IMG/VR virus record: IMGVR_UViG_3300027822_000001
Coordinates: 28,596-92,595 of that record
Origin: a virus
DNA: 64,000 nucleotides
Reading direction: 5' to 3' (one strand)
In this document: in pieces, positions 3,001 through 47,850 of the stretch
Layout of the letters: the number at the start of each line of letters is the position of its first letter
How positions within the stretch are numbered: the stretch's first letter is position 1
Made by a program: the position numbers and the translations under genes
Notes under the pieces: generated by a model
Told to the model about the DNA's origin: nothing
Seen by the model: the letters and a program-made list of their open reading frames with translations, nothing else
The model's database searches: none

Positions 3001-6000
3001 AAGAATGTTAAACATAATAGAATAAATTATGTATATGCTAAAGATATTAAAACTAATAAATATGCTAAAGAATATTTAAATGCTCTTAATGTCTCTGGTT
3101 GGGAAAATGTAAATATGTCTGATGCTGCAGAATATACAACACTTAGAGACCACATAGTAACATTACATGGAGAAGGAAGACTTAATGATAATGTCTTTAA
3201 TAAGATACATTCCAAAATAATAGAAAGTTATAGAAATGACACTCTTGTTAAATTAACTGAAGATGAGGCTATTGCTATAATACCACAAAAACCTTTATAT
3301 GCGGGTACTAATAATGTTGATGGACTTAGAGTTGCTACTATTGTTAAGTCAAGTGCATTTCCTTTATTAGAAAGTATAACTGGAGGAACTCCTTTTGATG
3401 CTGTTAGAAAAGCAATGGAAGCTAAAGAGAAAGAAGAAATATTTGATAGAGACAATAAGTTAGCTTTTGATGATTCTAATGAAATTTTAGAGTTATCTAC
3501 TACTAGACTTGCTTTTGAATCTGGAGTAAAAGTAGGTAATGCTAAACTAAATGATATTTTTAATGAGGATTTTACAATTAAAGATGGAGCTTTAAAAGAC
3601 ATAAAATATACTAACGTAGACAGAGAACATTTAGGCATTCAACAAGAAGAAAGTGAGAATGATAGTAGAAAGATAAATATTGTAAGTCAAATGAATAAAC
3701 TCGTTACTTCTGAAATATTAGATACAAAAGGCTTTAAACTTCCTGATAAAGAAAAAGAAATGAGTGGTATTGAGTTAAGAGACTTAAAAGAGAAACTTAA
3801 AAAAGCTATAATGGATAAGAAAGCCATTAAGTTATTTAAAGATGTAGGATATGATGAAGCTACTAATTCATTTACAGATGAAAAGAAATTCATGAAGTAT
3901 CTTGAATCTAAATTATCTGCTAATGAGATATCAGCAGAAGATGTAAAGATGCTTATTGATAAGGATGGAAATCAAGTAGCTCCTCTATATCTTAATAAAT
4001 CTTATGGAAAGATAATGAGTTCTTTATTAGCATCTATTAGTAAAGATGTGATAAAACCTAAAATAAGTGGTAAAGGAGCAGTTCAATTAAGTAGTGTCGG
4101 ATTGCTATTTAATGGAGATATGAATAACTCTAACATCATATTTACTAGAAGAACTGATGCAGATGGCAACATAATTAAACTTGATAGATTAGAACATACT
4201 AAATATAAAAATGGAGAACTTAAAAGAGCTCAACTTTTAGTATCTAGAGAGTTCTTTGAAAAGTTTGGAATAGATTTAGATAATGCTACTGAAATCATTG
4301 ATGGTAGGAAAGTTATGAAAGAGGGAGTAATTGATGATAGACTATTAAAAGCAATATCAGCTCGTATTCCTAATCAAAAACACTCTAGTATGTTGCAAGC
4401 TGAAATAGTAGGCTTTCTACCAAAAGATGTTAAAGAAACAGTAATTGTATCAGATGGAATAACAAAACAGATGGGTTCTGACTTTGATATTGACCATTTA
4501 TATAACTATTTATATAACTATAAAGTACAGAAAATTACTCATAAAGAAGATTTAACAAAAGATTTAACTAAGTTTAACAAACTTGTGGAAAGAGCTAAAG
4601 AAGGATATGCTCCTAGAAAAAGTAATCTTCATAAAGTTTTAAAAAGTATGGATAGAGAAGACTATAATGAGGAACTAATAAAAATAGGAATAGCTAAACA
4701 TTTAGATAAATTTTATGATACTAAATCTAAACAACTTTACGATATAGTTAGAGATTTTAAGCTAAGTAAAATAACTATGGTTGATGCTAATAGAGATAAA
4801 ATTAATAAAATAACAGACTTATCTACAGAAGCATTAGAAAATAGATATATAGATATTCATCACTCTATACTGGAACATAAAGAAGTATTACCTAAAATGT
4901 TAGAAGTACTTGATTTACCTGATGCTAAATTAATTACTAAAGATATAGATAGCTCAGTTCCTAAAATAGAAAATACAATGTTCTCTCCTTTATCTGGAGT
5001 ATATAATAAAAGACAATATGAGAGTAATCAAGGAGGTAAAGATGGTATATCTATACAAAGTTCTTTGAGTATGCTTCATATTGCTTTAGAAAAAGATAAC
5101 TTTGAGTTACAGTTTAAAAAGTTTAGTGAAACTAAGAGAGAAAATGAAAATGTATTTAAATTTATAGTAGATGGTAAAGAAGTAGTATTTAAAGCTATAG
5201 GTAGAGGAAGTTATAATTTTAAAGGAAACAAGAGAACAAATCTTACTACTAATACTATACTACAAAATGAAGCTGTTGATAATGCTAAAAATAAATTACT
5301 ATTTAGATTAGGCTATTCAGCAGTAACTTCTCCAGCTTATAATTTATTAAACTTTCTTGCAAAAGATGGAAAGTCTATGCCTTTAAGTATGATAGCTAAG
5401 ATGTTTAGACAGAAAGGAGTATTAGAAGCTTATAGATATGCTGAGAATAAGACATCTATGTTTAATGATTCTTCTAAATCTTTCTCTGAGTATATGAAAG
5501 AATATGCATTAAATAAGTATGATGGAGATAAAAACTTTTCAATATCAGAGGAAATTTTAGATAAGGGGTTAAAAGGTAAAAATACTAGTGATTCTAGTTT
5601 AAATAATTCTGATTATGAAAGCTTGCAATCTACTCTTATTGATAAGTTATCTAAAGCTCAGGAATTTGGTTCTAATCTACTTAGAATATATTCATCAGCT
5701 AATTTAGAAACTAAAGGAATAGGAAGTTCTACTGGAGAGCTATTATTAAAAGAATACAACATAAATAAATTTGTAGTAAATAACTCTAGATTTAGAGGAA
5801 CTTATAGATTACTTGGAGATGCTATAAATATGGATAATGGAGTAAGAAATGTTGGTGGCAATCTTACAGAGCTTGGTAGAATTTATGATTATGGAATAAG
5901 AAAAGCTCTTAATTTTTATGAGTTAAGAGATATTAAGAATAATCCTAGAACAATGTTGGGAAGCTCTAGATATAAAAATACAATCAGACAGTTTATACGT

Positions 6001-27434: not shown

Positions 27435-27571
27435 TTTTCTGTATTTTTTAAAAAGTTAAAAATTCGTACTTTTTGTAAATTAAAAAAGCATCCTGATTTA
27501 TAGTAGCGGGATAGCATCAAAAACCGGTAAAAGTCCAAAAAATCAACTTTAAATAGAAAATTCGACAATTT

Positions 27572-28478: not shown

Positions 28479-29047
28479 CGTTTCAATATTGTTATTTCTT
28501 CGGTAGTAGTTTCTCCACTACATTTATTAATTGTATTAACATGAGTTTCTTTATGTCCAAAAGGAAAGAAAGTTCTATTTCCTTTATTTCCAACCCTTTT
28601 CCACCAGTAAACACTAGCAGAACGGTAATCTACCATTAGTGTATCAAATGTTATGCTATCAGCAAGTACTAATCCACTTACATGTACACAACTATCTGGC
28701 TTATAATTAAATCTTCTGATAGAATCTCCTGCCATTACTATAGTTGTGTCATAATCATATTTATAATGATTATTTATAACTCTAGTAACATTTTTTACTT
28801 TTATATTATTTGCTTTAATTACCTCTTTGAGTAAGCTATCATTCTTTAAAACATACTGTCTAAATTCATCTTTAGATACTGTATAACTTTTATCATTAGT
28901 ACTTTTTATAAGCTCAGTTATTGTATGCTCCATCTCCTTATTACTACTAAGTAATGTTGCAAATTTAGATAAAAACCCTACTATCATAAGTATTACAGCA
29001 ATTATAACTAATATAGTTACTAAATACTTTTCTATTTTATTAAACAT
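28475..29047 (-). CDS. membrane-anchored protein, putative spanin-like lysis component
   Basis: N-terminal TM helix, short coiled coil, beta-rich C-terminal part with two Cys; near the M15 peptidase. Confidence 0.5.
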   Translation of the reverse strand: MFNKIEKYLVTILVIIAVILMIVGFLSKFATLLSSNKEMEHTITELIKSTNDKSYTVSKDEFRQYVLKNDSLLKEVIKANNIKVKNVTRVINNHYKYDYDTTIVMAGDSIRRFNYKPDSCVHVSGLVLADSITFDTLMVDYRSASVYWWKRVGNKGNRTFFPFGHKETHVNTINKCSGETTTEEITILKR

Positions 29048-38156: not shown

Positions 38157-38501
38157 TTAATATTTATCAACAATTCGATATCTATTACTTTCTATAGTTA
38201 CTATAGCTCCAATTAACTGAGATTTAGAAAAAGTTGCTGTCTTCCACTTATAATTATATTGTGCACTACAATATCTAAAATGTCTCTTTGAGAACTTCTT
38301 TAAAGATACAATTTTATAGGTGAAACCAACAGAGCAACTCTTGTTTCCTTTAGCACAACTACTTCCATTAGGTTCAACTATAGAATTAATAATGGGTATA
38401 ACAACTTTTAAAGGTATCTTTAATTTAGTACTTTGTTTATTATGAAAAACACTAATTTTTGCATTCTTAATGTTTTTCTTAGTTCTAGCAAATGTATTCA
38501 T
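38157..38501 (-). CDS. hypothetical basic protein
   Basis: 114-aa ORF. Confidence 0.6.
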   Translation of the reverse strand: MNTFARTKKNIKNAKISVFHNKQSTKLKIPLKVVIPIINSIVEPNGSSCAKGNKSCSVGFTYKIVSLKKFSKRHFRYCSAQYNYKWKTATFSKSQLIGAIVTIESNRYRIVDKY

Positions 38502-38519
38502 AACTACTTTGTTTTAAAT

Positions 38520-38617
38520 TAGTGAGAGATAAGAGAATCGAACTCTAGTATTTTTATCTGTAATTAAATTGTAATTATAAATTGTTAAAAGATAAAAATA
38601 GCAATACCTGCTCCCTC
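38520..38617 (-). ncRNA. tRNA-like RNA lacking an anticodon arm (topology like the tmRNA tRNA-like domain)
   Basis: GAGGGA/TCTCTC acceptor-like stem ending ACTA, T-arm AGAG-TTCGATT-CTCT, short GG-containing D-loop, perfect 11-bp central stem. Confidence 0.5.
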
Positions 38618-38624
38618 GATGTAT

Positions 38625-38756
38625 TTATGTGGTTTTAAGTCGTCCTGGTTTTGTATATTCTTTTCCACCATTTCTGCTTCCACCCACTAACACTTCTGTG
38701 TAATGTTTTAATCTTGCTGCTAATAACTTATTAGCTTTTCTTTGATATTTTCCCAT
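38625..38756 (-). CDS. 43-aa basic microprotein (not in the ORF track)
   Basis: MGKYQRKANKLLAARLKHY...YTKPGRLKTT, starts 6 nt after the ligase stop. Confidence 0.6.
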   Translation of the reverse strand: MGKYQRKANKLLAARLKHYTEVLVGGSRNGGKEYTKPGRLKTT

Positions 38757-38762
38757 AATTTA

Positions 38763-39398
38763 CTATTTAAAATCTTTATGCTTAATTTTTGTAACAACAC
38801 GTTCTCCAGACCTATTATAAAGTTCTATTTGAGGTTTCATTACCAATCCTTCTGCCATATAATCTTCATTGTCAGCTATAGTTGACTTAAAACCTTGCTT
38901 TACGAACTCTATAGCAGTTTTTAACTTCCAAATACCTATTATTGGTACAATAGAAATTTCTAATTTCTTTGCTATAACTTCTATAGCTTTACGTGTAAGC
39001 CACCATTTTCCTATTCTTATATCAAATAAGATAAAATTATTAGAATCAGGTAAATAATTTCCTCCTTTTTGTATTTTTTGTCCATATCCTTCTCCATAAA
39101 GACAAATATCAGCTTCTGTTTCAAATATATCTTCTAATTGTTTTTTACAAAAGAGTTTATTTAATTTATCTAATAAAAATGGTGGTATTTGAGTATTGTC
39201 TGACTTACCTCTTATAGAAAAGATTCCATTACTCAATATTATTCTTATATTTGTACCATCTATCTTTTCTGTACAAATCCAATTTATATCTTGCAATACT
39301 TCAAATTCTTTCTTTGACCATACTCCTTCTAAAAGAGTTCTAAAATTAGTCTTTGGGTCTCTCAAATAAACTGTTTGTATTTTATGATATTTATCCAT
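38763..39398 (-). CDS. RNA ligase (Rnl2-like nucleotidyltransferase domain)
   Basis: Motif I EKIDGTN, III YGE, IIIa FDI, IV EGLV, V KIK. Confidence 0.88.
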   Translation of the reverse strand: MDKYHKIQTVYLRDPKTNFRTLLEGVWSKKEFEVLQDINWICTEKIDGTNIRIILSNGIFSIRGKSDNTQIPPFLLDKLNKLFCKKQLEDIFETEADICLYGEGYGQKIQKGGNYLPDSNNFILFDIRIGKWWLTRKAIEVIAKKLEISIVPIIGIWKLKTAIEFVKQGFKSTIADNEDYMAEGLVMKPQIELYNRSGERVVTKIKHKDFK

Positions 39399-42295: not shown

Positions 42296-42328
42296 TGTTT
42301 ACTTTATTTTGATTAATATTTTTATATT

Positions 42329-42780
42329 AAACTCCGTATCAATAGGAGTTTCCGCACAATTAGTCTATATAGTGGTTTGTCATAATAAATTATGAACTAC
42401 CATATAAACTATACGATACAAGTTTTATATTACTTGTAAAGGCTAAATAAATGAAATCATATCTCCGCTTTTAAAGGTTATATTACTAATCACCTGTTAT
42501 ATGTTAACCGGTTCAGGAGCTGTGCATTGTTTCTGTGCCACAAAATGGTAGCTATCTCCATTTGCTTCAGATGTAACCTTCCTCTAATGCAACATTAGAC
42601 TTATGCATGTTTTGATTTATTAGCTGCCTACAATTACAGATAGAGGACTGGTCTTAACCACATTTCAATACTTGTAATTGTAGTATCATTACCTTAATTA
42701 AAGGTATGAGTATAAATGTATTTTATAAAATGCCCGTCTTTCCGAGCTGTCACCTTACAAAGCATATCCACCAATGGATA
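42329..42780. ncRNA. candidate structured non-coding RNA region
   Basis: About 450 nt without a long ORF, containing many perfect hairpins. Confidence 0.35.
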
Positions 42781-42826
42781 CCTAACTACCTGTTTTGGCT
42801 ATTATGAAGCTATCGACACTTCAATA

Positions 42827-43111
42827 CTATAAGGATTTGAGGAATCGAACCTCTCTTATTTTCATAATTAAATTTTTCATAGATTTTTTAATTATGTTTT
42901 TAATATGTTTATTCTTAAATTTTTCATACGTCGGATGTTGTTTAGGCTTATATCCGAAACATTTTATTCGTTTTATTTTTTTAAATAGTTTATGTTGTAC
43001 ATAATAGTAGTCACTAAATGCTAAACCTTCCTAAACAGACCATTTTGCATCTGTATGGTCAAGTACTTTCCACATTATGAGTGAATCTTTATGTTCATAT
43101 CTTGGTTTCAT
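42827..43111 (-). pseudogene. 94-codon gene interrupted by an in-frame TAG at codon 27
   Basis: MKPRYEH...KWSV*EGLAFSDYYY...KCFGYKPKQHPTY...; TAG at 43031-43033. Confidence 0.6.
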
Positions 43112-47738: not shown

Positions 47739-47774
47739 GATATCATATATTTTACAATATTGCCTACTCTTTTT

Positions 47775-47850
47775 CCGATTTTCGGCATATTCGGTCGAAT
47801 CTGTCCATACCCCCGTATGGTTTCACATCCACAATATAGACACGGTCTAT
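47775..47850. promoter_or_regulatory. cluster of short GC-rich hairpins at the strand switch (candidate vRNAP promoter or genome-end signal)
   Basis: CCGA-TTT-TCGG, ATTCG-GT-CGAAT, CCATAC-CCCC-GTATGG, ATAGAC-ACG-GTCTAT. Confidence 0.35.

Follow-up and report, generated by a model that had tools for sequence, protein, structure and literature searches.

A tRNA-shaped element without an anticodon arm beside an RNA ligase gene in a tRNA-free phage genome: a candidate tRNA-derived structure

Introduction

The stable RNAs C and D of phage T4 (species 1 and 2) are expressed from a cluster of real transfer RNAs (tRNAs) and have no known decoding role. Elsewhere, tRNA-like processing signals define the ends of messenger RNAs (mRNAs), as in mitochondrial tRNA punctuation and the mascRNA/MALAT1 type; we know of no case in which such mRNA-end processing was shown for crAss-like phages. 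Here we describe a 98-nucleotide (nt) tRNA-shaped element without an anticodon arm, found at 38520 to 38617 on the minus strand of a 64,000-nt stretch of viral DNA (the window; positions 28,596 to 92,595 of IMG/VR record IMGVR_UViG_3300027822_000001). We take the source genome to be that of a marine crAss-like phage. The element lies downstream of genes for an RNA ligase and a predicted small lysine- and arginine-rich protein. We tentatively favour reading it as a tRNA-derived, non-decoding structure that keeps the top half of a tRNA and, should it be active at all, most likely serves processing by RNase P and RNase Z; we rate this reading a little short of an even chance.

Like T4 RNAs C and D, the element would be a phage small RNA with tRNA-like ends, here predicted only; unlike them, it stands alone in a genome free of tRNAs. 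With tRNA punctuation and mascRNA it shares the placement of a tRNA-shaped structure between two messages and a possible excision by RNase P and RNase Z.

Three further systems are close enough to compare. In jakobid mitochondria the transfer-messenger RNAs (tmRNAs) are reduced and the message part is lost, as PMC3590771 describes them (Jacob et al. 2004), and even these message-less forms retain the G3:U70 pair (PMC3590771). The Lak megaphages have 'enigmatic' tRNA introns (Devoto et al. 2019, PMC6784885). In phage T4, tRNA repair by Pnkp and Rnl1 counters PrrC (reviewed in PMC3400036). An earlier interpretation of the window made from its letters alone (the sequence-only reading) had likened the element to the tRNA-like domain of tmRNA. 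It had also proposed that the element, the ligase and the small open reading frame (ORF) between them form a three-part module for RNA repair or for acting as a decoy.

Anatomy of the element

The element reads exactly as it was first quoted, from 38617 down to 38520, and we number its positions downward from 38617 on the minus strand. It consists of the following parts.

38520..38617, minus strand: tRNA-shaped element without an anticodon arm, 98 nt; cloverleaf-like minimum-free-energy fold, called by neither ARAGORN nor Rfam
38611..38617, minus strand: 5′ strand of the acceptor-like stem, GAGGGAG (from sequence and fold)
38601..38610, minus strand: D-like segment with GG, in which a 3-base-pair (bp) stem with a 5-nt loop is possible (from sequence and fold)
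38549..38600, minus strand: AU-rich imperfect palindrome of 52 nt, its outer 11 bp perfect, in the place of the anticodon arm (from an inverted-repeat scan)
38532..38546, minus strand: T-arm-like hairpin AGAG-TTCGATT-CTCT with a 4-bp stem, a canonical T loop and G53-C61 (from sequence and hairpin scans)
38520..38530, minus strand: 3′ strand of the acceptor-like stem, ATCTCTC, then discriminator A, then CTA (from sequence)

The acceptor-like stem pairs positions 1-6 with 89-94 through five Watson-Crick pairs and a G4:U69 wobble, with a G-A mismatch at position 7. Only 4 bp make up the T stem (AGAG/CTCT), its fifth position being U-U, and G53-C61 closes a UUCRANY-type T loop (TTCGATT). A single base separates this hairpin from the 3′ acceptor strand, and the element ends in A and then CTA, not CCA. 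The sequence-only reading had listed the 6-bp acceptor stem, the canonical T loop and the discriminator A followed by CUA, all of which we confirm in both sequence and fold. It had also described a stemless D loop with GG. The 10-nt D-like segment, CAGGTATTGC, does contain GG; it can form a mini-stem of at best 3 bp with a 5-nt loop, and it has no 8-9 linker.

The 5-bp anticodon stem with a 7-nt loop is absent from the element. As first described, a long helix stands in its place, made of 11 perfect pairs, nearly all A-U with one G-C, around a 30-nt AU-rich interior; two bases join it to the T hairpin. This helix is the core of the 52-nt imperfect palindrome, whose 26-nt arms are 77% complementary. 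The palindrome is unique in the window and is the largest inverted repeat between 30 and 48 kilobases (kb). The minimum-free-energy fold of the element by ViennaRNA is a cloverleaf, including the 3-bp mini D stem.

Comparison with tRNA and tmRNA models

By the available models the element is neither a tRNA nor a tmRNA. ARAGORN at normal settings finds no tRNA or tmRNA gene in the window or the genome, and searching the whole complete genome with RF00005 at E-values (E) up to 10 adds no tRNA. No tRNA or tmRNA family of Rfam matches at gathering score in the window, nor at E<=10 in a 501-nt slice. The dedicated tmRNA search of ARAGORN (-m) returns nothing even at a 70% threshold, and the tmRNA families of Rfam likewise. 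The ARAGORN and Infernal checks that had been suggested for this element thus end without a call, at normal settings and, with Rfam models, at E<=10 respectively.

The proposed likeness to the tRNA-like domain of tmRNA holds in outline only. In both, the T arm stacks with an acceptor stem, the D loop lacks a proper stem, a long helix takes the place of the anticodon arm, the discriminator is A, and neither would decode. The identity fails, because the G3:U70 pair of tmRNA and tRNA-Ala is absent (3:70 is G-C and the wobble lies at 4:69) and no tRNA or tmRNA model matches. The element further differs from that domain in its CTA end in place of CCA and in its 4-bp T stem.

The locus and its genome

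The genome record has 92,595 bp with direct terminal repeats, is rated complete and has about 28-30% G+C. A DNA similarity search found nothing in common with known phages. The single sequencing run listed with the element's DNA is a marine metagenome from 2014, probably its source, and no RNA run is listed. The element occupies the gap between two genes on its own strand, beginning 7 nt past the stop of one and ending 19 nt ahead of the ATG of the next. The genes of the locus are listed here.

38763..39398, minus strand: RNA ligase of 211 amino acids, nucleotidyltransferase domain only, distantly Rnl2-like (PF09414, E 7.8e-19)
38625..38756, minus strand: lysine- and arginine-rich ORF of 43 codons (orf43); its frame stays open for 36 further codons past the TAA, across the element, to 38518
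38157..38501, minus strand: next downstream gene (orf114), 114 amino acids, an orphan, with its ATG 19 nt after the element

The ligase had been called Rnl2-like. Its assignment as a ligase is secure at the PF09414 score given above; the likeness to Rnl2 is only distant, with E 8e-6 against the T4 Rnl2 structure 1s68 and 38 bits for TIGR02307, far under the cut-off of that model. The lysine motif KxDG is invariant in 37 homologs, and the protein lacks the C-terminal domain of Rnl2. Its family is huge, with 4,632 proteins at E<=1e-20, of which the closest non-self members are 63-67% identical; phage relatives include Crassvirales, and an identical ligase is encoded on a contig of 120 kb. Compared with T4 repair, this phage also has an ATP-dependent RNA ligase of the same superfamily. 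It differs in that its ligase is a bare nucleotidyltransferase domain and in that the complete genome encodes no Pnkp-type kinase/phosphatase (PF13671 and PF08645 searched).

The 43-codon ORF exists as predicted. Among 5.8 billion proteins it has one relative, a partial copy with 97% identity on a 677-nt contig that ends before the element, by sequence a strain variant. The neighbours of the ligase have no protein-family matches.

Other ligase loci

We compared about 95 loci with ligase homologs, which carry L numbers below. Of 50 ligase-bearing viral records 30 contain tRNAs, as do 13 of the 16 with a completeness of at least 90%; counts of 11-30 are common. Some lie very close to the ligase gene. 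A tRNA is found 68 nt downstream of it in L037, and others stand within a few hundred nt in L029, L035, L042, L049, L060, L078 and L089. In L014 (3168-3920) a class II, tRNA-Leu-like tRNA begins 8 nt after the ligase homolog and is split by a 666-nt insert. The insert, a group I intron by its Intron_gpI match (41.7 bits, E 3.8e-9), encodes an HNH endonuclease, and the locus gives no support to ligase-mediated splicing.

Several tRNA-shaped genes near the ligase are aberrant. Directly upstream of a 51%-identical ligase, L008 has a 178-nt tRNA-shaped region (1298-1475). A stem of 9 bp closes this region, its 5-bp T arm has the loop TTCGAAT, and a further T-like hairpin lies inside. ARAGORN at normal settings does not call it, nor does Rfam at E<=10, and only relaxed ARAGORN settings make it a tRNA-Pro with an 82-nt intron. 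L035 (5035-5154) has an oversized tRNA gene whose anticodon loop holds an insert of ~45 nt with a T-loop-like hairpin, and in the one of L089 (4731-4865) the anticodon loop has 13 nt and the variable arm is very long. Together with the Lak tRNAs, these three share with our element a tRNA outline, extra sequence in the anticodon region and residence in AT-rich phages with this ligase family. They differ from it in that the D arm, a T stem of 5 bp and an acceptor stem of 7 bp are all still there, in most cases with a recognisable anticodon stem; the L035 gene scores 44.8 bits with the tRNA model, against no match at E<=10 for the element. Given the tRNAs in the neighbourhood of this ligase family and the aberrant tRNA-shaped genes nearby, a tRNA, or what is left of one, could plausibly stand just after the ligase. 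In most loci, though, protein genes adjoin the ligase closely and no RNA partner is shared, and the gaps beside other homologs mostly hold small ORFs, promoters or terminators.

Other features were seen at these loci. Directly after the 58%-identical ligase of L003 (3144-3270) lies a putative multi-branched RNA of ~125 nt with a 14-bp closing stem followed by a U run (z = -3.2); it has no Rfam match at gathering score and is unlike the element of the window. Four contigs of large phages (110-174 kb; L017, L018, L026 and L042) have a tmRNA ~1.8 kb downstream of the ligase homolog (about 4981-5360) and tRNAs upstream. In two gut crAss-like phages a gene for a HicA-type mRNA interferase follows the ligase homolog, annotated directly after it in L091 (phage cr116_1, 3223-3426) and read from the sequence only in L009 (~3187).

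Weighing the evidence

We favour a real tRNA-related element on account of its in-register architecture, its retained top-half features and the tRNA neighbourhood of the ligase family. An acceptor stem, a T arm and an 11-bp helix in register are expected in dinucleotide shuffles only about 0.005 times per genome (0.07 when the helix may be as short as 8 bp). An estimate conditioned on the palindromes present would give ~0.003 per genome (~180 palindrome-strands × 1.4e-5). The descriptor behind the shuffle counts has a 5-position T stem with the inner four positions paired, a TTCRANN loop and then a 7-nt strand; the first six bases of this strand must pair with one that lies 45-130 nt upstream, a single G-U being allowed. 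The features that are kept (a canonical T loop with its G-C closing pair, the GG and the discriminator A) belong to the top half of the molecule. It is through this half that RNase P, RNase Z and the CCA-adding enzyme recognise a tRNA. The position between two genes of the same strand also speaks for a real element, and a complete genome without any tRNA fits the loss or decay of an ancestral set.

A good deal weighs against this reading. The fold energy is ordinary (-16 kcal/mol, z -1.8, with 11 of 200 shuffles folding as well), and z is only -1.3 when the whole intergenic flanks are included. The two stems fall short of the standard, with 6 and 4 bp, and meet at two mismatches. The scaffold of a 6-bp acceptor and a 4-bp T arm occurs twice in the real genome and 1.7-1.8 times per dinucleotide shuffle, so that this look is worthless on its own. 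Because the descriptor was written after the element was seen and is post hoc, the figures of 0.003-0.005 are optimistic, perhaps by an order of magnitude. Hairpins with a TTCRANY loop and a 4-bp stem number 6 in the genome (5.4 expected), and those with the strict form (TTCGAWT, 4 bp) number 2 (0.31 expected). The other strict hairpin, GAGG-TTCGATT-CCTC at 42839-42853, was considered as a second tRNA relic and rejected; it falls in the last codons of a 94-codon frame (42827-43111, minus strand, from ATG, with a single TAG at codon 27) and lends no support, as that frame is probably coding. The frame of orf43, too, stays open across the whole element.

Conservation adds to these doubts. None of the ~95 ligase loci has a homologous element, including the three best-matching ones (ligase 61%, 58% and 56% identical), and a metagenome scan with the ligase found loci only at <=54% identity over the full protein. 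The nine neighbouring proteins, including the 43-amino-acid one, have no tblastn match in these loci, and an IMG/VR scan with a neighbour gene gave no match. No parent tRNA was found within 3 mismatches in the 50 ligase-bearing records. The exact pattern of the 3′ half is absent from IMG/VR and has a single chance hit, in a coding region, among genomes of 185,579 prokaryote species (one genome each). The palindrome-arm pattern has 11 IMG/VR matches, all in unrelated coding DNA. Among contigs of the source run only the source contig itself covers the element, with no strain variants. As far as our searches reach, the element thus appears to be an unconserved singleton. The three-part module of the sequence-only reading is not supported, since orf43 and the other neighbours are orphans there, the co-occurrence of the element with the ligase that it implies was not found, and the genome has no Pnkp-type enzyme. 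Overall, whether the element is a leftover or processed tRNA-like RNA or a chance look-alike is about an even bet.

Alternative explanations

As a chance look-alike, the 52-nt palindrome would be an ordinary intergenic hairpin or a protein-binding dyad whose flanks by accident provide a 6-bp closing stem and a 4-bp hairpin with a sequence resembling a T loop. The scaffold and TTCRANY counts, the ordinary fold z-score and the lack of conservation suit this explanation, and relaxed ARAGORN yields several 'tRNAs' in any few hundred bases here. We still consider it unlikely, if a serious contender, given how rarely a palindrome is expected in register with both flanks and given that the element lies on the gene strand, right after a gene family associated with tRNAs. 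Nor does the gap offer other signals for such a hairpin, as 38502-38624 has no intrinsic terminator, G+C-rich stem or U tail, and no promoter better than shuffles was found. Alternatively, orf43 could be the front of a 79-codon gene, broken by one TAA, with the element as its former or read-through tail. The 36 open codons past the TAA reach to within 13 nt of the next ATG, and with them the block would again be tightly packed; a second gap (27435-27571, minus strand, 137 nt) is likewise filled by 46 open codons past an upstream TAA (p ~0.03), and the 94-codon frame with its single TAG is of the same kind. At ~0.06 for this composition, however, the chance of 36 open codons is weak evidence, the tail is rich in tyrosine, leucine and isoleucine like a translated AU palindrome and has no homolog, and BLASTP finds no similarity between it and the tail of the 42827-43111 frame. 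The stop is fixed in the sole contig that spans the element (103.9x mean word depth, no variants listed), and no single recoding explains the broken frames because the three stop codons involved across the genome differ. We therefore regard a coding origin as distinctly unlikely.

A purpose-built tRNA mimic that works with the ligase would be a CCA-tailed decoy or sponge for SmpB, EF-Tu or acceptor-end toxins, or a substrate or partner of the ligase itself. Its top half has the architecture of tmRNA tRNA-like domains, the jakobid mitochondrial tmRNAs are an example of such a domain working without a message part (PMC3590771), and the ligase is adjacent. The missing G3:U70 pair, the ~95 ligase homologs with no homologous RNA and mostly abutted by protein genes, and the genome's lack of a healing enzyme make it improbable. 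A decoy for anticodon nucleases, one of the roles first suggested, is mechanistically unlikely in particular, as these enzymes read an anticodon stem-loop and the element has none. Quite improbable in our view is a ~95-nt, CCA-tailed, anticodon-less mimic made from the ligase operon, one of an undescribed and loosely related class of non-decoding RNAs that would travel with this bare-domain ligase in phages. Such an RNA would serve as sponge or decoy, and the ligase would reseal either it or tRNAs of the host. If such a mimic exists, it would act on host factors or defence toxins that read the top half or the 3′ end of tRNAs. An intron-containing decoding tRNA is very improbable. ARAGORN at a 70% threshold with introns allowed does call a tRNA-Ile(UAU) with a 23-nt intron, and interrupted tRNAs adjoin ligase homologs in L014 and L035. 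That solution leaves 6 of the 11 helix pairs unused and its D arm is nearly missing, and we rejected it together with the other relaxed calls as noise, the same settings giving overlapping calls on the opposite strand and three more 'tRNAs' in another noncoding stretch of 900 nt. Its 23-30 nt are also far below the size of a group I intron such as the real one of L014. Close to refuted is the reading as an attachment-site (attP) core or a piece captured from a tRNA or tmRNA gene of the host. Such genes often have their 3′ end, with the T arm and the acceptor strand, copied in phage attachment sites. Here, the 3′ half has no match among the species genomes apart from the coding-region hit, and no tyrosine integrase was found in the complete genome, so that we give this origin hardly any weight.

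A nearby noncoding stretch

Elsewhere in the window, 42296-42826 (minus strand) is a stretch of ~530 nt without an ORF amid tightly packed genes, which we consider a candidate for a large noncoding RNA that holds a 22-nt motif. The fold of 42330-42880 has z = -3.4, with none of 100 shuffles as good. Neither Rfam (E<=1) nor known phages offer a match to the stretch. The motif, TGACAGCTCGGAAAGACGGGCA, is invariant and runs from 42752 to 42731 (minus strand). At least 119 IMG/VR contigs match its 19-nt core exactly; the matches listed represent about 85 distinct contexts. The G+C content of the flanks spans 29-69%, and conservation has a sharp edge on either side. Near-exact copies occur in cultured phages of Vibrio, Ralstonia, Stenotrophomonas and Bacteroides, mostly in unannotated gaps. 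A hairpin of 5 bp with the loop GAAAGA is possible within the motif. Among the matches listed, six contexts have a tRNA that begins 4-9 nt past the motif, and one of these then has a permuted tmRNA. The motif is not in Rfam 15, and its string was not found in the literature searched.

In addition, the DUF805b RNA motif of Rfam matches at 47761-47795 (minus strand; 44 bits, gathering score 35.6), near a divergent strand switch.

Discussion

The sequence-only reading had offered an RNase P/Z processing signal as one of several roles, and as far as the predicted structure goes this one is viable. We infer a tRNA ancestry for the element, and likewise its transcription, its processing and any activity of the RNA that would be released. 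The acceptor/T-arm stack and the GG loop of a former phage tRNA gene would have been kept or exapted, and the 52-nt AU palindrome would have replaced the D and anticodon half. The element would then be transcribed on the gene strand, within an early transcript of the ligase, orf43 and orf114. Host RNase P might cut its 5′ side, 7 nt past the orf43 stop, and RNase Z or exonucleases might cleave it just past the discriminator A, leaving 22 nt to the next ATG. These cuts would part the two messages and free an RNA of ~95 nt that is unable to read codons. Our doubt comes from the ordinary fold energy, from stems below the standard, from statistics set up post hoc and from the frame that stays open.

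As a single unconserved instance, the element is chiefly of value as a candidate. If real, it would be a further case of a phage that keeps the half of a tRNA recognised by enzymes and drops decoding. It would add a crAss-like, tRNA-free genome to the phages with such RNAs beside an RNA ligase, and it would bear on the processing of early transcripts and on how phages handle host defences directed at tRNAs.

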